Shown here piece by piece: positions 1,252-52,722 of a DNA stretch of 64,000 nucleotides. Every line of letters begins with the position of its first letter. Position 1 is the first letter of the stretch. The DNA comes from a virus (taxonomy: Duplodnaviria > Heunggongvirae > Uroviricota > Caudoviricetes): IMG/VR virus record IMGVR_UViG_2651869782_000025; one strand, given 5' to 3'. The position numbers and the translations under genes were made by a program. The notes below the pieces were generated by a model. That model was not told where the DNA came from and did not search any database. It saw only the letters and a list, made by a program, of their open reading frames with translations.

Positions 1252-1268
1252 AAATGCTCTAATAAATT
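1252..1268 (+). promoter_or_regulatory. C1-repressor operator-like 17-mer upstream of immI (Op51-like)
   Basis: AATGCTCTAATAAATTT, one mismatch to the P1 C1 operator consensus ATTGCTCTAATAAATTT. Confidence 0.55.
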
Positions 1269-1449
1269 TGTATTTTTAAGTCGCAAATGCTATCTTTTCG
1301 CATCATATTGACCTTTTAATCGTTCAGGCTTATAGTTCCGCCGTCGTAGCAAATTCTGCGACCGGGTTTAGCAGCCTGAATGTTAGTGCGGACAACCGCA
1401 GATATCCGATATTGCGGTATTTTTGTGTCCGTAAAACCGCGTTACGCCC

Positions 1450-1570
1450 AAATTATGGTGGGGCGTGATGGGGAGGCTTCGGCCTGCTGGTTTCACTAAC
1501 GCCAGTCTGCTAACCCCGTCACGTCCTGCCACCTGTTTAGCAGCGGGTAGCAGGTTGTTAAACCTGTTAG
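1450..1570 (+). ncRNA. c4: Probable c4 antisense-RNA region of immI (boundaries approximate)
   Basis: Non-coding GC-rich stretch directly upstream of icd. It contains GGGGAGG, complementary to CCTCCCC just upstream of the ant start (about 1772-1778), plus internal CACTAAC/GTTAGTG complementarity, consistent with the P1 c4 mechanism. Confidence 0.4.
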
Positions 1571-1583
1571 TGAGGCCGTAACT

Positions 1584-1805
1584 ATGGTTAATGCCAATCC
1601 TTGCGCACGCCCAGAATTCATCTGGCGTTTCTATTCCTGTAAAAAACACCACTATCACTTCGTTATCGCAGCAACTGAAGACGAAGCACGCTCTCAATTG
1701 CCTGATGGCCCCTGCATTTTTACTGCCCGTTTTTCTACTGACTCGCGCAATTCACTTAGTTACTGGAACCTCCCCTTCTCTGCCGACGTTCAGGGGGTTT
1801 TATGA
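1584..1805 (+). CDS. icd: Icd (interference with cell division), 73 aa
   Basis: 73-aa ORF immediately upstream of and overlapping the ant start (ATGA overlap at 1802-1805), matching P1 icd-ant1 coupling; a paralog occurs at 50508. Confidence 0.65.
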   Translation: MVNANPCARPEFIWRFYSCKKHHYHFVIAATEDEARSQLPDGPCIFTARFSTDSRNSLSYWNLPFSADVQGVL

Positions 1806-2845
1806 AAAAACCTCTCATCACCCGGAATGAAATAGCCGAAGCGATCGCTTTGCATACAACCTGTATGCCGACACGGGAGATCCCCGGCGCAATTGCCAAC
1901 TATTTCATGATAACCAGGCGTTTTTATACCCGAACAGATAAGGCTGTGATCAACAGGCTACTGATAGCCGAGATCAGGGATTATTTGATTGAACAAGGAC
2001 GTCTACGTTACGCAACAGTGGCAGCAGAAATGAGAAAGGAGGCACATAGAATGACCGGTAATAATTTGAATGTTGAAAAACCAGCACCTGTTACGTCAGC
2101 TACGCCAGCACCAACCGTGAATATTATCCCCAACACCGGAGACACAATCGACAGCCTGACATTGTTGAAGATGGTCAATGAGGCACGTAAGTTATGTGGA
2201 GAACCAGAGGTTAGAAACAATAAATTCATCGAAAAAATACTCGATGAACTTGAAGGTGAATTTTACACAAAAAGTGCAAAATCCCATGGCACAAGGGCCG
2301 GGCGCTCTTTTGAGGTCATAACCATGACCTATAAACAAGCCCTGCGAGTCGCCGCGCGCGAATCAAAAGCTGTCCGCCGTTCGCTGATCGACAAACTGGA
2401 AGAATTGCAGCAGGCAAACTCCCCTACTCCATCGATCCCCCAAACATTACCAGAAGCTCTACGCCTGGCTGCCGAGTTGGCAGAACAGAAAATGCAGCTG
2501 GAACAACAGCTGGTGGCCGCTGCCCCTAAAGTCGATTTTGCCGACCGGGTATCAGTGGCCAATGGAATCCTGATCGGTAACTTTGCAAAGGTCGTTGGAC
2601 TTAAGCAAAACGCCCTTTTCTCATGGTTGCGCCAGAACGGCATTATCATGGCTTTTGGTGCGCGCAAAAACGTACCGCGCCAACAGTACATCAACGCCGG
2701 GTATTTCACGGTGAAAGAAGTGGTACTGGATGATGAAAATGGCTACCAGATACGGCTGACGCCCCAATTAACGGGTAAAGGCCAGCAGTGGTTAACTCGC
2801 AAGCTACTTGATGCTGGTTTGTTAAAACCAGTAGCAATAGGTTAA
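1802..2845 (+). CDS. ant1: Antirepressor Ant1 (Ant2 would be an in-frame internal start); C-terminal KilAC domain
   Basis: 347-aa ORF. Its C-terminal about 130 aa (PQTLPEALRLAAELAEQK...GKGQQWLTRKLLDAGLL) is shared with the KilA ORF and the second Ant-like ORF, a KilAC-type antirepressor domain. Confidence 0.7.
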   Translation: MKKPLITRNEIAEAIALHTTCMPTREIPGAIANYFMITRRFYTRTDKAVINRLLIAEIRDYLIEQGRLRYATVAAEMRKEAHRMTGNNLNVEKPAPVTSATPAPTVNIIPNTGDTIDSLTLLKMVNEARKLCGEPEVRNNKFIEKILDELEGEFYTKSAKSHGTRAGRSFEVITMTYKQALRVAARESKAVRRSLIDKLEELQQANSPTPSIPQTLPEALRLAAELAEQKMQLEQQLVAAAPKVDFADRVSVANGILIGNFAKVVGLKQNALFSWLRQNGIIMAFGARKNVPRQQYINAGYFTVKEVVLDDENGYQIRLTPQLTGKGQQWLTRKLLDAGLLKPVAIG

Positions 2846-2922
2846 CAAAAGAAAAAACCTGCCAGCAAACTGGCAAGTTTCTGAGCAGATCGACCAACCC
2901 GATCTGGATCGAGTTAGAAAAA

Positions 2923-2939
2923 TTTGCTCTAATAAATTT
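2923..2939 (+). promoter_or_regulatory. C1 operator-like 17-mer upstream of kilA-repL (Op53-like)
   Basis: TTTGCTCTAATAAATTT, one mismatch to consensus, about 70 bp upstream of the kilA start. Confidence 0.6.
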
Positions 2940-3008
2940 CGTTTTCTAAGTGCAAAGAATCACCATTTCGAGCTGGTGATTGAAGGTTGATGCAAATTTG
3001 GAGAAAAA

Positions 3009-3809
3009 ATGCAACAAACATTCAATGCGGATATGAATATATCAAACCTTCATCAAAATGTCGATCCTTCAACCACTCTGCCTGTTATTTGTGGTGTTGA
3101 AATTACGACCGACCGCGCTGGCCGTTACAACCTTAATGCTCTACACAGAGCGAGCGGACTCGGTGCCCATAAAGCGCCAGCTCAATGGCTAAGAACGCTA
3201 TCAGCCAAACAGCTCATCGAAGAGCTTGAAAAAGAAACTATGCAGAATTGCATAGTTTCGTTCGAAGGCCGTAGCGGCGGCACTTTTGCCCATGAATTGC
3301 TCGCTGTGGAGTACGCAGGCTGGATTTCCCCCGCGTTTCGGCTGAAGGTAAACCAGACATTTATCGACTATCGAGCCGGAAGATTACAACCTGCTATTCC
3401 GCAGAGTCTCCCTGAAGCCCTCCGATTGGCTGCCGACCTGGCAGAGCAAAAGCAACGGCTGGAGCAAAAAATGCTTATGGATGCACCTAAAGTCGAATTC
3501 GCCGAACGCGTTGCTACCGCCAGCGGGGTTCTAATCGGCAACTATGCCAAAGTGCTCGGCCTGGGCCAAAACTATCTCTTCACCTGGTTGCGTGATAACG
3601 GAATTCTGATCGCAACCGGTGAACGCAGGAACGTCCCCAAACAAGAATACATATCCCGTGGGTACTTCACCCTCAAAGAAACCGTGATCGATACAAGCAA
3701 CGGAAGCAGGATTTCTTTCACGACTCGTATAACCGGCAAAGGTCAGCAGTGGCTGATGAAGCGATTGCTTGATGCTGGTGTGCTGGTACCTGTCGCGGCT
3801 ACGCGCTAA
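3009..3809 (+). CDS. kilA: KilA (KilA-N plus KilAC domains)
   Basis: 266-aa ORF directly upstream of repL; C-terminus paralogous to Ant; size and position match P1 kilA. Confidence 0.7.
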   Translation: MQQTFNADMNISNLHQNVDPSTTLPVICGVEITTDRAGRYNLNALHRASGLGAHKAPAQWLRTLSAKQLIEELEKETMQNCIVSFEGRSGGTFAHELLAVEYAGWISPAFRLKVNQTFIDYRAGRLQPAIPQSLPEALRLAADLAEQKQRLEQKMLMDAPKVEFAERVATASGVLIGNYAKVLGLGQNYLFTWLRDNGILIATGERRNVPKQEYISRGYFTLKETVIDTSNGSRISFTTRITGKGQQWLMKRLLDAGVLVPVAATR

Positions 3810-3838
3810 CAGACGTAGTAAGAACCACCAGCATTGTA

Positions 3839-4681
3839 ATGCTGGCTAAAGTCACTTTCCTGAGCTGTATAACGATGAGCGATTTTACTTTTTCTGGCTA
3901 TGAATTGGCCTGCTTTGTAACACACTCCGGTCTATCCCGTAGCGCCGGGCATATCCTGTCGCAATGTGCAAATCTCGCGGCAACAACCAGTGAATACTTC
4001 ATTCACAAGCCCCACCGCCTGATCGCGGCAGAAACTGGTTATAGCCAATCAACCGTCGTTCGTGCATTCCGTGAAGCTGTAAACAAAGGAATTCTGTCTG
4101 TAGAGATTGTTATCGGCGATCACCGTGAACGTCGCGCTAACCTGTACCGGTTTACACCATCCTTTTTGGCCTTCGCACAACAAGCCAAAAATGCGCTGAT
4201 TGAAAGCAAATTAAAGATCTCTTCAGCGGCAACCAAGGTTAAAGCTGTTCTCGCTAAGACATTGGCTTTATTTAATTTTTTATCCACACCCCCATGTCAA
4301 AATGATACCCCCTCCCCCTGTCAGGATGACGTGGCAATAAAGAATAAGAAGTCACAAATTAAAAAAACAAAAAGATCAGTTTCCGGCGGTGCCGGAACGA
4401 CCAGACTCAAAAAATTGACTTCATGGATCGCTGAGGCAAAAGCAAAGGCTGACAATCTGCGGTTATCCAAAAAACGCGCTGAAAAACATGAGTTCAAGCA
4501 GAAAGTAGAGGCGGCAGCGCGGAAATATGCTTACCTGAAGAACAAGCGTTCTCCTGATATTGGCGGGGTATCAAACTTCGATAATCTGCCGCATTGCATG
4601 ACGGTAAACGAAGCTATGGATATGGTCCTATCTACCAGAAAAGAAAAGGAATTTTATATTCCAACTGGTTTTCGCGGATGA
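3839..4681 (+). CDS. repL: RepL lytic replication initiator (oriL expected inside the gene)
   Basis: 280-aa ORF following kilA; P1 RepL is about 281 aa in the same arrangement. Confidence 0.7.
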   Translation: MLAKVTFLSCITMSDFTFSGYELACFVTHSGLSRSAGHILSQCANLAATTSEYFIHKPHRLIAAETGYSQSTVVRAFREAVNKGILSVEIVIGDHRERRANLYRFTPSFLAFAQQAKNALIESKLKISSAATKVKAVLAKTLALFNFLSTPPCQNDTPSPCQDDVAIKNKKSQIKKTKRSVSGGAGTTRLKKLTSWIAEAKAKADNLRLSKKRAEKHEFKQKVEAAARKYAYLKNKRSPDIGGVSNFDNLPHCMTVNEAMDMVLSTRKEKEFYIPTGFRG

Positions 4682-4776: not shown

Positions 4777-5292
4777 ATGAAAAAAGTAGTTTTAACGGCC
4801 CTTCTGGCATGTGCCTTGGGGGTTGCTGGGACTGCCTCCGCATATCAGCACACACTCTCCTTAGACTTTGCCCAAGGAAGCGCAACGGTTAAAGGCGGAG
4901 ATATAAAAGATCCAAAAGGCGTGAATATTAAATATCGCTACGAAATGGATTCTACGTGGGGTGGATTAGCTTCGGTCACTTACGAAAAGTCAAACACAAA
5001 CCTATGGAATGCCGCCAAAGCCAAGGTTGAGTATGCCTCATTTACTTTTGGTCCGTCATACAGATTCAATGAATTAATGAGTGCATACGGCTTGGTGGGT
5101 TTAAGCCATGCGGATGCAACAGCAAAACTGAATGGACAGTCATATGCTGGTTTTGGAACCGATTTTGCTTATGGACTTGGGCTTCAATTTAACCCATCTC
5201 CGCAGTTTGCTGTTGACCTTTCGTATGAACGCTCTAAACCAGGTGATCTAAGCAATAGCATTTGGATGCTTGGTGTCGGTTACCGATTTTAA
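4777..5292 (+). CDS. Ail/Lom/OmpX/PagC/Rck-family 8-strand outer-membrane beta-barrel protein
   Basis: 171 aa with signal peptide MKKVVLTALLACALGVAGTASA and C-terminal ...GVGYRF ending in Phe, the family hallmark; alternating aromatic/hydrophobic strands. Confidence 0.75.
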   Translation: MKKVVLTALLACALGVAGTASAYQHTLSLDFAQGSATVKGGDIKDPKGVNIKYRYEMDSTWGGLASVTYEKSNTNLWNAAKAKVEYASFTFGPSYRFNELMSAYGLVGLSHADATAKLNGQSYAGFGTDFAYGLGLQFNPSPQFAVDLSYERSKPGDLSNSIWMLGVGYRF

Positions 5293-5603: not shown

Positions 5604-5785
5604 TACACCCGCTGCGGTGTGCTTGAGGCTATCTGCTTCAGGCATTCCCCGAAAAGCAGATAGAAGAAAGCCCCAGTAAACATTATGCGTCCCGCACAAC
5701 GCTTAACATTAACCGGGGCCATACCTATGCTTAGCGTACTTAGATTAATCCTCTCCTCTGTCAAGGAGCAAGGAATTTTTTACTG

Positions 5786-6418
5786 CTATGCCGCCTTTCC
5801 AGTTATGGATTCTGCGACAAGAACAACACCATGCTTACTTCGATCCGGATGTTCACTCCATATCTCGGATTCAGGAATACTTTTCCCGTCATAGCAAACA
5901 CGTTCGCCGTCAAACGGGTAATACTGAGCGGCATCGGTGTCGAGGATAAACACTTTTAGCTCGGAAGAGCGACGGGCGATATGTTGCCAAAGAGCTTTTC
6001 CACCTTCGTATTGCTCATTATCACTGAGCAAAACAACACCAGCTTTTGAGGCTACGGTTTCGTAAACAAAAGTAGCTAAACCGACATCCCGGACAGTTCC
6101 ATCAACCACGATACCTTCAATCTGGGCAACATCGCTATCCTCCCAGAACTTCCTTACCAGTACGCCTTCAAGCTGCGGGCGACGTTGAAGTTCAAGAGTA
6201 GCGACAACCTTATGCCGCATATCACCATCGATAACAGAAGGCGCAGCCTCTATTACAGCTGCAAATGGGGTTTTGGAATCCCATATAACCTGGTAAAGCA
6301 CACCCTGGATGGTAACTCCGTCCAGGATCGAAAATCGACGAGCGACAGTACCCGGGGAGTACGACATTGGAATCACAGCCATTTTAGAGTCCCCCTTTAA
6401 CAGTACAGGCACAAACAT
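5786..6418 (-). CDS. Hypothetical phage late protein
   Basis: 210-aa ORF co-oriented with the late structural block; likely start at the internal MAVIPMSY. Confidence 0.45.
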   Translation of the reverse strand: MFVPVLLKGDSKMAVIPMSYSPGTVARRFSILDGVTIQGVLYQVIWDSKTPFAAVIEAAPSVIDGDMRHKVVATLELQRRPQLEGVLVRKFWEDSDVAQIEGIVVDGTVRDVGLATFVYETVASKAGVVLLSDNEQYEGGKALWQHIARRSSELKVFILDTDAAQYYPFDGERVCYDGKSIPESEIWSEHPDRSKHGVVLVAESITGKAA

Positions 6419-33843: not shown

Positions 33844-34506
33844 ATGCTCGCCTGGAGGCTGAATTTGCAGCTGAGAATGAACATACCACCCAGGGCGACT
33901 AGGACTGTTTTTTGTGTCGGTAGCGGTCCTTCACTCACTCGTGAGGACTGTGCTGCTATAGAAAAAACTGGCTGTTCAATCATCGCGGTTAACAATTCCT
34001 GGCAGATGTTCGATGACATTTATGCCTTATACGCCGGTGATTTGTCATGGTGGAAGCAATACGGTTCCACCATACCGGGAGGGAGGTTCCGCAAAGTGAC
34101 AGCCAACCTGGCAGCGGCAAAATCATTTTCGTTGGAGTACAGGCGATATTGTGGACCGGCGGAAGGGGTAAATAGCGGCGCGCAGGCTATCAGTCTGGCG
34201 GCTGAATCAGGGGCTGAAGTAGTTGTATTAGTCGGCTATGACTGTTCTCTGCAAAACGGCCTTCATTGGCATGGGGCGCACCCTCAAGCACTACGGAATC
34301 CAACGCAGGTATCTATTTCAAAATGGCAACAGCAGTTCCTGGATACCCGCAAAAAACACGCAGATTTACATATTTTGAATGCAAGTAGGAGCAGTGCAAT
34401 TCAATGTTTCCCAAGAATAAATTTAGAGGCAGTGATCGCGTTATTATCGTCGGCAGTGGCCCAAGCGCCGCAAACTTTGTTGCGCCGCGCGGAGTGCCGA
34501 TTATAG
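33844..34506 (+). CDS. DUF115/MptE-like (GSGPS...IAVN) protein, paralog A
   Basis: VFCVGSGPSLT...CSIIAVNNSW; overlaps the next paralog by about 100 bp in another frame, so the true boundary is uncertain. Confidence 0.4.
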   Translation: MLAWRLNLQLRMNIPPRATRTVFCVGSGPSLTREDCAAIEKTGCSIIAVNNSWQMFDDIYALYAGDLSWWKQYGSTIPGGRFRKVTANLAAAKSFSLEYRRYCGPAEGVNSGAQAISLAAESGAEVVVLVGYDCSLQNGLHWHGAHPQALRNPTQVSISKWQQQFLDTRKKHADLHILNASRSSAIQCFPRINLEAVIALLSSAVAQAPQTLLRRAECRL

Positions 34507-47470: not shown

Positions 47471-48664
47471 GTGACCTGGGACGATCACAAGAAGAATTTT
47501 GCTCGCCTGGCGCGAGATGGTGGTTACACCATCGCACAGTATGCCGCCGAGTTTAATCTTAACCCTAATACCGCACGTCGTTATCTCCGTGCCTTCAAAG
47601 AAGACACCAGGACAGCGGACAGCCGCAAGCCAAATAAGCCAGTCAGAAAGCCACTAAAAAGCATGATCATTGATCACGCAAATGATCAACATGCAGGTGA
47701 TCATATTGCGGATAAAGTAGCTGAAAAACAAAGAGTTAATGCTGTTGTTAGTGCCGCTGTCGAGAACGCGAAGCGCCAAAATAAGCGCATAAAAGATCGT
47801 TCAGATGATCATGACGTGATCACCCGTGCCCACCGGACCTTACGTGATCGCCTGGAACGTGACACCCTGGATGATGATGGTGAACGCTTTGAATTCGAAG
47901 CTGGCGATTACCTGATAGATAACGTTGAAGCGCGGAAGGCCGCGCGCGCTATGTTGCGTCGTTCTGGAGCTGATGTTCTGGAAACCACCCTTCTGGAAAA
48001 GTCTCTTTCTCATCTCCTTATGCTGGAGAACGCCAGGGATACGTGTATTCGTCTGGTGCAGGAAATGCGCGAGCAGAAAAAAGACGATGATGAAGGTACT
48101 CCGCCTGAATACCGTATCGCGAGCATGCTAAACAGCTGTTCTGCGCAGATTAGCAGTCTGATCAACACTATTTACAGCATCCGGAATAACTATCGAAAAG
48201 AAAGTCGGGAGGCGGAAAAGCACGCTTTATCTATGGGGCAGGCTGGCATTGTTAAGCTGGCATACGAACGAAAGCGTGAAAACAGCTGGTCAGTGCTGGA
48301 GGCAGCAGAATTCATCGAGGCGCATGGTGGGAAAGTACCTCCCTTGATGCTGGAGCAAATCAAAGCTGATCTGCGTGCTCCTAAGACCAATACCGATGAT
48401 GAGGAAAGGCAAACTGCCGTTGGTGGCCCTTCTCTTGAAGATCTGGATAAAGTTGCGCGAGAACGGGCCGCTAACCGCCGCGCAGATGCCGCATTATGGA
48501 TTGAGCAGCGCAGGGAAGAAATCGCCGATATCGTTGATACAGGCGGTTATGGAGATGTTGATGCTGAAGGTGTATCAAACGACCCATGGCTGGAACAAGA
48601 CCTGGATGAGGACGAGGAGGAAGACGAAGAAGTTACCCGCAAGCTATACGGGGATGATGATTAA
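47471..48664 (+). CDS. pacA: PacA terminase small subunit
   Basis: 397 aa (P1 PacA is 397 aa); the pac GATC hexamer cluster lies in its 5' part; acidic C-terminus. Confidence 0.85.
47664..47823. other. pac: pac packaging site: two clusters of TGATCA/G hexamers (Dam sites)
   Basis: TGATCA(T/C/A) repeats at 47664, 47671, 47683, 47698 and GATC motifs at about 47793, 47806, 47817, separated by an AT-rich spacer. Confidence 0.8.
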
Positions 48665-50148
48665 TGGCCAGAAGTTGCGTAACAGACCCTCGTTGGCGCG
48701 AGCTGGTGGCGCTATATCGTTATGACTGGATTGCGGCCGCTGATGTTTTGTTCGGGAAAACACCTACCTGGCAGCAGGATCTGATTATTGAGTCCGTGCA
48801 GGAACAGGGTAGCAAGACATCTGTTTCGTCAGGCCACGGTACCGGGAAATCGGATATGACCTCTATCATGATCATGCTGTTTATAATCATGTATCCCGGT
48901 GCCCGCGCCATTATCGTTGCGAACAAAATTCAGCAGGTAATGACAGGTATATTCAAGTACATCAAGATAAACTGGGCTACGGCCACCAGCCGTTTTCCAT
49001 GGCTTGCTGATTATTTTGTTCTGACAGAAACCGCTTTCTACGAGGTTACTGGTAAAGGGGTGTGGACTGTAGTACCGAAGGGCTTTCGTCTGGGAAGTGA
49101 AGAAGCTCTCGCAGGTGAACACGCAGATCATCTTCTGTATATTATCGATGAAGCCTCCGGTGTCAGTGATAGGGCTTTCGGTATCATCACCGGTGCTCTT
49201 ACCGGACAGGATAACCGCATCTTATTACTGTCACAGCCTACACGCCCAAGCGGCTATTTCTACGATACACACCATAAACTGGCCAAGCGTCCTGGTAACC
49301 CTGATGGCGTTTATACGGCGATCACGCTTAACAGTGAGGAATCACCGCTGGTAACGCCAGCATTTATCAAAATGAAGCTGGCGGAGTACGGCGGGCGTGA
49401 TAACCCTATGTACATGATTAAGGTACGCGGCCTGTTTCCTAAATCACAGGATGGCTTCCTTCTTGGACGTGATGAGGTTGAACGTGCAACGCGGCGGAAA
49501 GTCAAGATTGCCAAAGGATGGGGCTGGCTTGCATGTGTGGACGTTGCTGGTGGTACGGGACGGGATAAGTCCGTTATCAATATCATGATGGTGTCCGGCC
49601 AGCGAAATAAACGCCGTGTAATCAACTATCGAATGCTGGAATACACAGACGTTACAGAAACGCAGCTTGCCGCCAAAATTTTCGCAGAATGCAATCCTGA
49701 GCGATTCCCAAATATCACCATAGCGATAGACGGCGATGGCCTGGGTAAAGCAACGGCGGATCTGATGTACGAGTATTATGGTATTACCGTACAGCGTATA
49801 CGCTGGGGTAAAAAGATGCATAGCCGTGAAGATAAGAGCCTGTACTTTGATAAACGTGCTTATGCCAACGTTCAAGCCGCAGAGGCCGTAAAATCTGGTC
49901 GTATGAGACTGGATAAGGGTAATGAAACTATTGAGGAAGCGTCGAAAATCCCTGTAGGGATTAACTCCGCAGGTCAATGGAAAGTGATGAGTAAGGAGGA
50001 TATGAAGAAAAAACTCAACCTGCACTCACCAGACCATTGGGATACATATTGTTTCGCTATGCTGGCGGATTATGTTCCTCAGGATGAAGTGCTTAGCGTC
50101 GAAGACGAAGCGCAGGTTGATGAAGCTCTGGCATGGCTTAATGAATGA
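48664..50148 (+). CDS. pacB: PacB terminase large subunit
   Basis: 494 aa (P1 PacB is 494 aa); Walker A-like GHGTGKS; start overlaps the pacA stop. Confidence 0.85.
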
Positions 50149-50151
50149 ATA

Positions 50152-50168
50152 TTTGCTCTAATAAATTG
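50152..50168 (+). promoter_or_regulatory. C1 operator-like 17-mer upstream of the second immI-like module
   Basis: TTTGCTCTAATAAATTG. Confidence 0.5.
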
Positions 50169-50329
50169 TGTTTTTTAACTGCCGATGTTACATTGAGCCT
50201 GACCTCTTGCGCCTTGAGGCATTTTCGGTTTATGCTTATCAGGCACCTCATTAAAACGGGTGCCGGGATTGGAACCCCGGATAATGCAAAAGGCGACACA
50301 GACGCCAAAAGCGTCTTTTTTTGTGTCAT

Positions 50330-50500
50330 GCCATCGCACAGCCATACGTAGCACATAGCTCCGAGATCAATGGTAGTGCTGGCTGGGCTGCCGAAAGGCA
50401 GGCCGGTTCCCTTTTGCGCCGGTAGTTCCAACCCAGTCAGTGCTACCGCCATTGAGATTGGAACCTCACGCGGTAGCTCCTTAAGTTAGCAAAAGGAGGC
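50330..50500 (+). ncRNA. Possible c4-like structured RNA of the second immunity module
   Basis: Non-coding stretch with internal complementarity (GGTTCCAA/TTGGAACC; GTAGTGCTGG/CAGTGCTAC) upstream of the icd paralog; sequence differs from the first c4 region. Confidence 0.3.
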
Positions 50501-50507
50501 TGCCATT

Positions 50508-50729
50508 ATGGCTACTATCCCTACCCCAACTCACCCTGAATTTATCTGGCGCTTTTATTCCTGCCAGAAACGTCACTATCACTTCGTTATTGCACCGACA
50601 GAAGATGAGGCTCGCTCTCAGCTTCCTGATGCACCCTGCATTTTCTCCGCCCGTTTTTCTACTGATTCGCGCAATTCTCTCAGTTACTGGTGCCTCCCTG
50701 TTAACGCTTCTGCTCGGGAGGGGCTATGA
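50508..50729 (+). CDS. icd: Icd paralog, 73 aa
   Basis: Clearly paralogous to ORF 1584-1805 (shared PEFIWRFYSC...HYHFVIA...TEDEARSQLPD...CIF...ARFSTDSRNSLSYW); ATGA overlap with the downstream gene. Confidence 0.65.
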   Translation: MATIPTPTHPEFIWRFYSCQKRHYHFVIAPTEDEARSQLPDAPCIFSARFSTDSRNSLSYWCLPVNASAREGL

Positions 50730-51838
50730 GAACATCGTTAGTTACCCGTGAAGAGATGATCGAGGCAATTGAACAGCACACTGCCTGTATCAGCACCAGG
50801 GATATACCGGGCGTTATTGCCAACTACTTCATGATCACCAAGCAACTTTACCGGAGAAAGGACAAGAACGCTGTTCACCGTATCCTGCTGTCTGATATCC
50901 GCGAATACCTGCTCGAACAGGGTCATCTGAATTACGCAACCGTAGCAGCTGAAACACGCAAGGAGGCACACAGAATGAAAGCAACTAACGTTAAATCAGA
51001 AAAAATTCATGCACCTTCAGTTCAGGAATCGGAGCTGGTGGTTGCTCAAAATCAGCCTGATGAAATTCCCGTTCTGGAGTGGCAGGGAGTACGTGTCGTG
51101 ACAACCGAAACTCTTGCTAGAGGGTATGGGGTCGATGAAGCCAATATTCGCAACAATTTGTCTCGCAACCTTGACCGCTTTGAAGAAGGTAAGCATTACT
51201 TTCTTCTAACTGGTTTAAAATTAAGAGAATTTAAGAACAGAGTAACCGGAAGTTACTCTGTTGGTAAGAACGCCAGAAGCCTTACACTCTGGACAGAGCG
51301 CGGCGCTGCACGCATGTCTAAGATCGTGGACACAAATGAAGCATGGGCATTCTTTGAAAAACTGGAAGACAGCTACTTCCGGCAAAAAGAACAGCAACCG
51401 GTTGCAATCCCCCAAACATTACCAGAAGCCCTACGCCTGGCTGCCGAACTGGCTGAACAAAAGCAGCTTCTGGAACAGAAAGCCCACCAGCTAAATCAGC
51501 AGCTGGTGGCCGCCGCTCCTAAGGTCGATTTTGCCGACCGGGTATCAGTGGCCAAGGGGATCCTGATTGGGAATTTTGCAAAGGTTGTTGGACTTAAGCA
51601 AAACGCGCTGTTTGCCTGGTTACGGGAGAACGGCATCCTGATAGCGTCCGGTGGACGTAAAAATGTGCCGTTCCAGCAGTACATCAACGCGGGGTATTTC
51701 ACGGTGAAAGAAGTGGTGCTGGATGATGAAGATGGCTACCAGATACGGTTGACGCCTCAATTAACGGGGAAAGGCCAGCAGTGGTTGACGCGTAAACTGC
51801 TCGATGCTGGCTTGTTAAAACCGGTGGCGGCTGAATAA
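50726..51838 (+). CDS. Ant-like antirepressor paralog with a different central domain and shared KilAC C-terminus
   Basis: 370 aa; N-terminal 90 aa and C-terminal 150 aa parallel Ant1, the middle (VLEWQGVRVVTTETLARGYGVDEANIRNNLSRN...) is unrelated. Confidence 0.65.
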   Translation: MRTSLVTREEMIEAIEQHTACISTRDIPGVIANYFMITKQLYRRKDKNAVHRILLSDIREYLLEQGHLNYATVAAETRKEAHRMKATNVKSEKIHAPSVQESELVVAQNQPDEIPVLEWQGVRVVTTETLARGYGVDEANIRNNLSRNLDRFEEGKHYFLLTGLKLREFKNRVTGSYSVGKNARSLTLWTERGAARMSKIVDTNEAWAFFEKLEDSYFRQKEQQPVAIPQTLPEALRLAAELAEQKQLLEQKAHQLNQQLVAAAPKVDFADRVSVAKGILIGNFAKVVGLKQNALFAWLRENGILIASGGRKNVPFQQYINAGYFTVKEVVLDDEDGYQIRLTPQLTGKGQQWLTRKLLDAGLLKPVAAE

Positions 51839-51870
51839 TGGAAGAATGCCCGGTTGATGCCGGGCATAAT

Positions 51871-52722
51871 TTATTGTGCGCTTTCGGGGTTGTCGTTTAC
51901 TGGCTGCCCCTTCTTAGTTTTACGGCTGCGCGTAACTGATGCGGCTGATTTGACCTTTTTCTCTTCGCGAGTGATGGCAATTTGTTTTTTTACATTTTCA
52001 ATATCTGCCAGGCGATATATTTTTGCCTGCGGCCAGCGGTCGCAGATGATCGGTTCTATAGAGTCATAAAGGCTAAATTTTGCTTTCTCGAATTCACCGT
52101 TGATGATAATTCCATCACGGAGAGTTTCATCGCAGATAAACACACCACACAGCGGCACATGGTAACTAACTGATTTACCATCATTGTAGTTAGGGCTACT
52201 GGAAATGTAATGGACGCGCAGCATTGTTTCGCTAAAGCCGTGTACACGCATACGGAATTTTTCATCCTCCGGGTACTGCTTCATTAGCTCTTTTGTTGCT
52301 TCCAGGTTCTCTATGTATTTCGCACTGTGCTCATTGATCCCCGCGCTTTTCTGGATGCGAATGTCCTTATCAATCAGATGAATAATGCGGCCAGCGGTCA
52401 TGTTGACGCTGTTCACAGCTTCTGTCTGATAAGTTGTAACCTTACGCACACCGCGAAGGATGTTAGGCACTGGATATAAAATAGTCTTTGGGATATTGAG
52501 GTCTGGGTACTGTTCCAGTTCCCGCGCCATTAAAGTCCATTTATCAATTTCAGCCTGAATGCTGTCAGTTTCTTTGAACGGTAGAACGACAACCGGGCGT
52601 ACAGGACGACCGTCGCTGGCTGTATCAACGTGTTGGGCGCGTGCAACAGCTTTTTTTAGAAAGAGATCCCTGAAGCTGACGAACTCCTGGTACAGTTGTT
52701 CGCCGTAGACATAATTTATCAT
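51871..52722 (-). CDS. c1: C1 repressor of lysis
   Basis: 283-aa ORF (P1 C1 is 283 aa), downstream of coi on the same strand, surrounded by operator 17-mers. Confidence 0.8.
   Translation of the reverse strand: MINYVYGEQLYQEFVSFRDLFLKKAVARAQHVDTASDGRPVRPVVVLPFKETDSIQAEIDKWTLMARELEQYPDLNIPKTILYPVPNILRGVRKVTTYQTEAVNSVNMTAGRIIHLIDKDIRIQKSAGINEHSAKYIENLEATKELMKQYPEDEKFRMRVHGFSETMLRVHYISSSPNYNDGKSVSYHVPLCGVFICDETLRDGIIINGEFEKAKFSLYDSIEPIICDRWPQAKIYRLADIENVKKQIAITREEKKVKSAASVTRSRKTKKGQPVNDNPESAQ

Follow-up and report, generated by a model that had tools for sequence, protein, structure and literature searches.

Immunity of phage P1 is taught as a tripartite arrangement of immC, immI and immT, a picture which is based on P1 and P7. 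In the immI region of both phages a C1 operator lies on the first of two promoters and is followed by a leader with the sites a1 and b1, a terminator-like hairpin, the antisense RNA C4 and the sites a2 and b2 at the ribosome binding site of icd. The genes icd and ant overlap at an ATGA, a nested Ant2 start is found at codon 84 and the antirepressor ends with a KilAC domain. The C4 mechanism and the heteroimmunity between P1 and P7 that results from it are reportedly established. We have analyzed a stretch of 64,000 nucleotides (IMG/VR record IMGVR_UViG_2651869782_000025), the whole of which is called the window below. The window is a P1-like phage-plasmid with pacA/pacB at 47471-50148, c1 on the minus strand at 51871-52722, coi and cre nearby and a kilA-repL block with the canonical immI at 1253-4681. 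We suggest that the region between pacB and c1 is probably a complete, self-contained second switch of the immI type (module 2), inserted beside c1. The features just listed for the immI of P1 and P7 recur in this module in the same order, the C1 operator and the two promoters as putative elements. It differs from them in its entirely different recognition sequences, in the ORF6N centre of its Ant protein and in its position, as the immI of P1 and P7 lies beside kilA-repL whereas module 2 lies beside immC and is convergent with c1.

The insert between pacB and c1

In reference P1 just 24 bp separate the stop codons of pacB and c1. Alignment of the junctions places about 1.72 kb, at 50147-51868 of the window, where P1 has this short spacer. 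When P1 and P7 are compared with the region, matches are confined to the C-terminal segment of ant and come from their own ant1 genes. That the module is simply the state of reference P1 is therefore ruled out, as both P1 and P7 lack the insert. A preliminary description of this DNA had placed at 50152-51838, between pacB and c1, a divergent c4/icd/ant unit with its own C1 operator-like site, a leader of another kind, a paralogue of Icd and an Ant-like protein whose central domain is swapped. All the elements it listed were located there and it was upheld at every point tested, including the comparison with the P1 and P7 reference genomes. The thought that the module could be ordinary synteny does not apply to reference P1, yet it does describe about half of the sequenced P1-like plasmids. 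The insert carries, in this order, the C1 operator-like site with its promoter, a second promoter, an IsrK-type leader, a C4 RNA (C4-2), the a2 and b2 sites, icd-2 and ant-like 2:

50152-50168, plus strand: C1 operator-like site TTTGCTCTAATAAATTG, overlapping the -35 element of promoter Pa
50166-50194, plus strand: promoter Pa, putatively C1-controlled (TTGTGT, 17-nucleotide spacer, TACATT), read directly from the sequence
50207-50236, plus strand: promoter Pb (TTGCGC, 18-nucleotide spacer, TATGCT), equivalent of PisrK, P4 PLE and P1 P51b
50243-50321, plus strand: IsrK-type leader RNA (Rfam isrK RF01394, 62.4 bits against a gathering score of 50, model positions 1-77)
50269-50275, plus strand: a1, TTGGAAC, in the loop of leader hairpin 2
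50286-50293, plus strand: b1, GCAAAAGG, in a single-stranded stretch of the leader
50300-50316, plus strand: intrinsic terminator hairpin with T-run, from the terminator scan
50366-50453, plus strand: C4-2 antisense RNA (Rfam C4 RF01695, 76.7 bits against a gathering score of 45, E = 3e-13, full length 1-87)
50410-50417, plus strand: b' loop of C4-2, CCUUUUGC
50425-50431, plus strand: a' of C4-2, GUUCCAA
50448-50451, plus strand: conserved 3' GCCA of C4-2
50458-50464, plus strand: a2, TTGGAAC, in the translation initiation region of icd-2
50489-50496, plus strand: b2, GCAAAAGG, overlapping the icd-2 Shine-Dalgarno sequence AAGGAGG at 50493-50499
50508-50729, plus strand: icd-2, 73 amino acids, paralogue of Icd
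50726-51838, plus strand: ant-like 2, 370 amino acids (phrog_63 'anti-repressor Ant', E = 1.6e-136)
51846-51867, no strand assigned: G+C-rich hairpin ATGCCCGGTTGATGCCGGGCAT, from the terminator scan

The core of the module is the relation between the RNA and its sites. Both loops of C4-2 are exactly complementary, over 7 and 8 nucleotides, to all four sites of its own module, a1, b1, a2 and b2. The leader consists of hairpin 1, hairpin 2 with a1 exposed in the loop, the single-stranded b1 and the intrinsic terminator; the Rfam model c4-a1b1 overlaps the same hairpins weakly (23 bits, E = 0.001). RNase P maturation of C4 from the operon transcript requires a 3' CCA-like motif, and CCA at 50449-50451, the 3' end of C4-2, is invariant in all 11 loci aligned below. 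C4-2 has the long closing stem and the two internal hairpins of its family, and the stems covary among 14 homologues. The leader of the window as a whole folds with z = -4.73. Its minimum free energy structure is a cis-paired conformer in which a1 pairs with a' and b1 with b', and the centroid structure shows the IsrK hairpins together with the C4 fold. The cis helix is also predicted independently by the RNAalifold consensus. Thus the secondary structure on which the preliminary description had made its proposal depend is present in the leader as a conserved and covarying fold.

Two tandem promoters are predicted upstream of a single transcript, the upstream one being overlapped by the operator-like site. 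The transcript is predicted to start with the leader and, where it continues past the terminator, to include C4-2. This site deviates at two positions from the C1 operator consensus ATTGCTCTAATAAATTT and has the 13-nucleotide core intact; the window contains ten such sites where 0.03 are expected by chance. The geometry from the operator to the -10 element at Pa is the same as in P1 for Oc4 (Op51) with P2c4 (P51a). Pb ends 6 nucleotides upstream of the leader, and a promoter-like hexamer pair 6-7 nucleotides before the isrK start is also found in D6, Stx phages, phiP27, P4 (PLE) and a Brenneria chromosome. The operator-like site is kept in RCS47, JL22, 673R5 and the sampled plasmids but not in the D6 homologue. 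As the homology to D6 begins at 50199, directly after Pa, the segment with the C1 operator and Pa is specific to the P1-like versions. At the other end ant-like 2 and c1 converge on the G+C-rich hairpin, a probable bidirectional terminator which belongs to the insert and is missing from the P1 junction.

Icd-2 is 80% identical to the Icd encoded at 1584-1805 and matches the NCBIfam model phage_ICD_like (E = 2.5e-13) and phrog_1426 (E = 4.5e-45). Its stop codon overlaps the start of ant-like 2 in an ATGA at 50726-50729, as in P1, and translation of the two genes is predicted to be coupled. Ant-like 2 shares 55% identity overall with Ant1 (1802-2845), with about 85 N-terminal and about 140 C-terminal residues conserved and the centre unalignable. 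It can be divided into an N-terminus of the Ant1 type (residues 1-85), an ORF6N domain (116-200; Pfam E = 2.4e-18) and a KilAC domain (258-359; PF03374, ANT/KilAC, E = 1.5e-31), and at the DNA level its C-terminal part shares about 86% identity with P1 ant1. An in-frame internal start of the Ant2 type, Met84 at 50975, is preceded by AAGGAGG and is the same codon as in the annotated P1 ant2. The search of Ant-like 2 against PDB sequences returned nothing relevant and no NCBIfam model matched it. The remark in the preliminary description that Ant1, KilA and Ant-like 2 have KilAC in common proved correct: Pfam finds ORF6N and KilAC in Ant-like 2, only KilAC in Ant1 and KilA-N with KilAC in KilA.

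Covariation, alleles and distribution

We aligned 11 divergent loci from the leader to the start codon, namely the window, RCS47, 673R5, D6, p13C1065T-3, three Stx/Oslovirus-type phages, phiP27, a Stx1 phage and P4. The framework is conserved, with an invariant GGAGGCTGCCA ahead of the start codon, and is interrupted by six short hypervariable islands which coincide precisely with a1, b1, b', a', a2 and b2. For a'/a2 and b'/b2 standard base pairs are found in 100% of 165 cells although 12 of the 15 pairs changed on both sides; none of 500 shuffles reached this value and slid controls gave 26-47% pairing. For a1/a' and b1/b' 98.8% of the cells are paired, with 11 of the 15 pairs changed on both sides and again 0 of 500 shuffles. 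Over both tests the slid controls gave 26-51%.

The same alignment contains a further helix. The 3' strand of the closing stem of C4-2, GCUACCGC (region 50448-50477), can alternatively pair with GCGGUAGC at 50470-50477, and the resulting hairpin exposes a2 in its loop. Covariation of this helix is seen in the 11 loci (columns 289:320, for instance, have five double changes), and therefore a conserved conformational switch at the 3' boundary of C4 is suggested.

The module is present at the same site between pacB and c1 in RCS47, JL22 and vB_EcoM-673R5 with 88-97% identity. In PLSDB we counted 307 plasmids with the module (coverage of at least 80%) and 569 with the 3' half of pacB, that is about 54%, and it is found in 300 of 5,426 complete E. 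coli genomes. The open reading frames are intact and the operator and promoter conserved in RCS47, JL22, 673R5 and the sampled plasmids. In RefSeq the module bears the annotation 'ash family protein / Icd-like / KilAC antirepressor'. A single sentence of Venturini et al. (2019; PMC6906374) mentions an ant gene and two short hypothetical open reading frames between pacB and c1, in the manner of RCS47. This sentence is the sole mention our literature searches returned; they yielded no work on the function or the RNAs of the pacB-c1 module and no account of its RNA logic, of five or more specificity alleles or of an equivalence with isrK-orf45-anrP of Gifsy-1. The module is thus already in the databases and common, its RNA logic is uncharacterized, and in our view it is real and probably functional.

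Twelve pacB-c1 modules, together with D6, were sampled for their recognition sequences. At least five combinations of a and b occur at the site, and in each the loop and both targets match:

a TTGGAAC with b GCAAAAGG: the window, pHNSHP24, pZ1323SSL0053-3, pCRKP-59-KPC
a TTGAGAC with b GCAAAAGG: JL22, pFLI21_1, D6
a TTGAGAC with b GTCAAAGG: RCS47
a TTGGAAC with b GTCAAAGG: p13C1065T-3
a TTGGCCT with b GTCYAAGG: 673R5, pF200-2, p95NR1A, pEA24_3

The a alleles TTGGAAC and TTGAGAC are each found with both GCAAAAGG and GTCAAAGG, a pattern which indicates reassortment. In the Ant protein, too, the pacB-c1 modules differ: its ORF6N segment occurs in at least three variants between ends that are nearly identical.

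Canonical immI and related C4-type systems

The window carries its canonical immI in the usual place:

1253-2845, plus strand: canonical immI
1253-1269, plus strand: operator
1330-1382, plus strand: c4-a1b1 leader
1451-1536, plus strand: C4 RNA (C4-1)
1584-1805, plus strand: icd
1802-2845, plus strand: ant1/ant2

The leader and C4 region of module 2 is about 55% identical to this copy and, unlike it, is of the isrK type. C4-1 has b' UCACUAAC and a' CUGCUAA, with the corresponding sites a = TTAGCAG and b = GTTAGTGA; the b site can alternatively be written GTTAGTG(A). The sites of P1 are TTGACAG/GTTAGTGA and those of P7 TTAGCAG/GATTGTGA. The immI of the window (1330-1590) is therefore chimeric, with a sites of the P7 type joined to b sites of the P1 type, and so the a and b specificities reassort at the classical locus, too.

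The preliminary description had proposed to examine if the pairing of each C4 is restricted to the sites of its own module. We judged pairing by the duplex energies of short segments and by counting exact complements, as full-length duplexfold and cofold calculations of each C4 with each target gave uninformative energies in which intramolecular structure dominates. Each C4 has exact complements of 7-8 nucleotides at the four sites of its own module. The longest non-cognate Watson-Crick runs are 3-5 nucleotides, save for one exception of 7 nucleotides which is discussed below, and no recognition sequence is common to C4-2 and the canonical immI. The energies are -9.0 to -19.3 kcal/mol for cognate and -1.6 to -9.7 kcal/mol for non-cognate segments. 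As the recognition sequences of C4-2 and C4-1 are unrelated, the two switches should be orthogonal.

Among the known systems RCS47, JL22, 673R5 and pTZ20_1P carry close relatives at the pacB-c1 site. The immI of D6 is about 89-90% identical to module 2 in its leader-C4-icd part; it differs in having no C1 operator and Pa segment and in its antirepressor, which is unrelated (20% identical). Tandem isrK and C4 matches are present in D6, Stx phages, phiP27, P4 (leader and CI RNA) and the chromosomes of Serratia, Brenneria and Kluyvera; Yokenella has C4 only. In a contig scan with the 17-mer GGAGGCTGCCAWYATGG the matches listed are mostly chance occurrences in unrelated phyla, and among them real C4 units are found only in Serratia, Brenneria, Yokenella and Kluyvera. 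The immunity region of P4 (PLE, seqA, CI RNA, seqC) resembles module 2 in its tandem isrK (60.8 bits) and C4 (74.9 bits) and in the equivalent position of the promoter, and the covariation of loops and targets within the family extends to P4. P4 CI works by premature transcription termination and controls the P4 replication genes, without an icd/ant pair.

In Gifsy-1 of Salmonella (NC_010392.1; region 34131-34316, minus strand) isrK lies at 34240-34316, and a C4 RNA scoring 69 bits is found under 'orf45', between isrK and anrP (STM2616). The isrK region itself passes the gathering score of the c4-a1b1 model (48.1 against 46.7). Gifsy-1 thus shares with module 2 the tandem isrK-C4 arrangement, a downstream antirepressor and a leader terminator which can give a short RNA or be read through; it differs in having no icd, with AnrP directly after the RNA region, and no C1 operator. 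Hershko-Shalev et al. (2016; PMC4825925) describe cis pairing of the leader with a segment about 130-160 nucleotides downstream (helix b-I, 'structure A'), which corresponds to a1b1:a'b'. In their work IsrK supplied in trans raises AnrP translation about 140-fold, and the output is antQ expression and growth arrest. The compensatory mutants G28A/C162U and G31A/C159U regain the wild-type RNA conformation in native gels, and the values of the translation fusions are only partly restored (PMC4825925). Numbered from the Rfam isrK start, G28 and G31 fall in the a1 loop UUGGCGU and C159-C162 in a' CGCCAA. These experiments therefore directly support the pairing of a1 with a' and the view that the leader acts as a decoy (anti-antisense).

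IsrK thus seems to play the part of the a1b1 leader in a switch of the C4 type. The 2016 study reads the orf45 region as a translated open reading frame, and it also reports that the nucleotide sequence is conserved and the amino acid sequence variable and that a processed RNA of about 80 nucleotides, STnc1160, arises there (PMC4825925). The link is absent from this study, which contains no occurrence of 'phage P1' and does not mention P1 c4, and from a 2025 review which handles IsrK and c4 separately. Judged by sequence, P1 c4, P4 CI and Salmonella IsrK, which belong to three separate literatures, describe one RNA switch. The IsrK experiments then also constitute evidence for the a1 and b1 sites of P1, which have long been called 'putative'.

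Proposed mechanism, alternatives and consequences

We suggest that module 2 works as a second immI switch in the following way. In the lysogen C1 would limit transcription from Pa, and C4-2, processed and stable, would pair with a2 and b2 and block the synthesis of Icd-2 and Ant-2. The a1/b1 leader would compete for the loops of C4-2, in cis and, as a terminated IsrK-like short RNA, in trans. Upon loss of C1 a burst of transcription would relieve the block, so that Icd-2 and Ant-2 are made. Ant-2 could then inactivate C1 and thereby close a positive feedback loop. Expression, processing, binding of C1 at the operator, the target of Ant-2 and the consequences at the population level we infer from the sequence. 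For a working switch of this kind, including the block by C4-2, the titration by a1b1 and the antagonism of C1 by Ant-2, we estimate a probability of roughly 0.7.

Several points weigh against this proposal. The expression, processing and binding assumed for the module in P1-like elements are extrapolated from homology to the immI of P1 and P7 and to IsrK of Gifsy-1. On paper Pa is a weak promoter, and the promoter consensus scan did not list it. One sampled plasmid, pF200-2, has two additional operator mismatches, and therefore C1 control of the second module may differ among lineages. The ORF6N centre of Ant-like 2 is unlike that of Ant1 and itself occurs in at least three variants; C1 is a presumed target of Ant-2. 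At the a2 sites the short-segment duplex energies separate cognate from non-cognate pairs only moderately, with cognate energies of -9.7 and -9.0 kcal/mol against non-cognate values of -3.3 to -6.0 kcal/mol. Finally, the a' region of C4-1 (UGCUAAC) has a 7-nucleotide exact complement, GTTAGCA at 50485-50491, directly 5' of b2 of module 2, and through this match the canonical C4 could weakly influence icd-2. We considered whether this is designed cross-talk; probably it is due to chance, with about 1% per comparison over eight comparisons, and it is not conserved in RCS47 and p13C1065T-3. The operator-like site of pF200-2, which belongs to the 673R5-type allele group, is located at 200-216 of the pF200-2 sequence analyzed and reads TTTGTTCTAATGAATTG.

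The RNA switch could be functional while Ant-like 2 aims, via ORF6N, at another repressor (such as that of D6-like or lambdoid prophages) or at DNA; its role would then lie in cross-talk between prophages or in the induction of co-resident elements and not in P1 immunity. The cassette is indeed found before different proteins: in D6 the leader, C4 and icd precede the unrelated antirepressor, and in Stx phages and Gifsy-1 the cassette precedes proteins of the Rha/ORF6N type. Moreover, the ORF6N segment is a mosaic among the pacB-c1 modules, and antirepressors acting in trans across Gifsy prophages are documented (PMC3121763). We regard such a different target as rather unlikely, as the N-terminal 85 residues and the KilAC region closely resemble Ant1 of the P1 type, the nested start of the Ant2 type is retained, the C1 operator-like site is found only in the P1-like versions and the module always adjoins c1. 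It is less probable still that the module is a passenger, a recombinational mosaic derived from a D6-like phage which is silent or redundant in P1-like plasmids and does not influence immunity. Neither reference P1 nor P7 needs the module in order to function, the leader and icd are closest to D6 but the 3' end of ant to P1 ant1, and truncated versions occur in some plasmids. A passenger is, however, difficult to reconcile with the intact open reading frames, with the presence of the arrangement in about 54% of the pacB-bearing plasmids and with the perfect complementarity of loop and targets through at least five allelic states at the locus, which requires selection on three sites at once.

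The small open reading frames of the leader deserve consideration as well. If the 39-amino-acid frame at 50370-50489 (plus strand) or the 68-amino-acid frame at 50145-50351 encoded the true regulator, the RNA structures would be incidental. The former is labelled 'ash family protein' by RefSeq in homologous plasmids and matches PHROG 'transcriptional repressor' families, and for Gifsy-1 a tagged Orf45 protein was detected whose translation is required for full activation of anrP (PMC4825925). The 39-amino-acid frame, however, sits exactly on the gene of C4-2, a 76.7-bit RNA match with compensatory changes in its stems, and it has no Pfam or NCBIfam match. The variable amino acid sequence over conserved nucleotides at orf45 also speaks against a protein, and the frame in the window stops 19 nucleotides before the icd start, so that a coupling of the Gifsy-1 type is unavailable. 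The PHROG repressor families probably derive from the old 'cI protein' frame of P4, and the 'ash' and repressor protein families appear to be a conserved RNA gene read as protein. We therefore consider regulation by these small proteins very improbable and prefer the second immI switch controlled by the C4-2 RNA.

About half of the P1-like plasmids in the database have this additional immI-type switch beside c1, and many of them carry resistance genes. If the switch is active, the rules of superinfection, prophage induction and co-residence differ from the textbook, and these rules hang on short, rapidly reassorting RNA recognition sequences which can be read from the sequence. The unrelated recognition sequences of C4-2 and C4-1 would give the element two locks which do not depend on each other. 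A prophage which supplies both C4 RNAs should then be immune to relatives with either ant module, and the element, when superinfecting, should escape in any lysogen that is missing one of the two C4 types and be held only where both are supplied. The dual or hetero-immune control suggested in the preliminary description would be of this kind.

A wider proposal can be made tentatively. The site beside c1 might be a second, highly polymorphic RNA 'immunity barcode' locus, with the canonical immI reassorted independently of it, so that the two loci together form a combinatorial heteroimmunity network, and the IsrK family might be the general a1b1 decoy arm of C4 switches. If so, this network would govern superinfection, induction and exclusion among co-circulating P1-like plasmids, with two-module elements dominant over single-module ones, and 'orf45' of Gifsy-1 would have to be reinterpreted as a C4 RNA gene.

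Apart from the immunity regions, the segment downstream of repL shows two further features. An Rfam match to the sok antitoxin RNA (69.6 bits) at 5617-5790 suggests a hok/sok-type cassette, which is not known from reference P1. P1 has rlfA/rlfB at the position downstream of repL. The window has there an open reading frame of 171 amino acids (4777-5292) with a signal-peptide-like N-terminus, which by eye resembles an outer-membrane beta-barrel.

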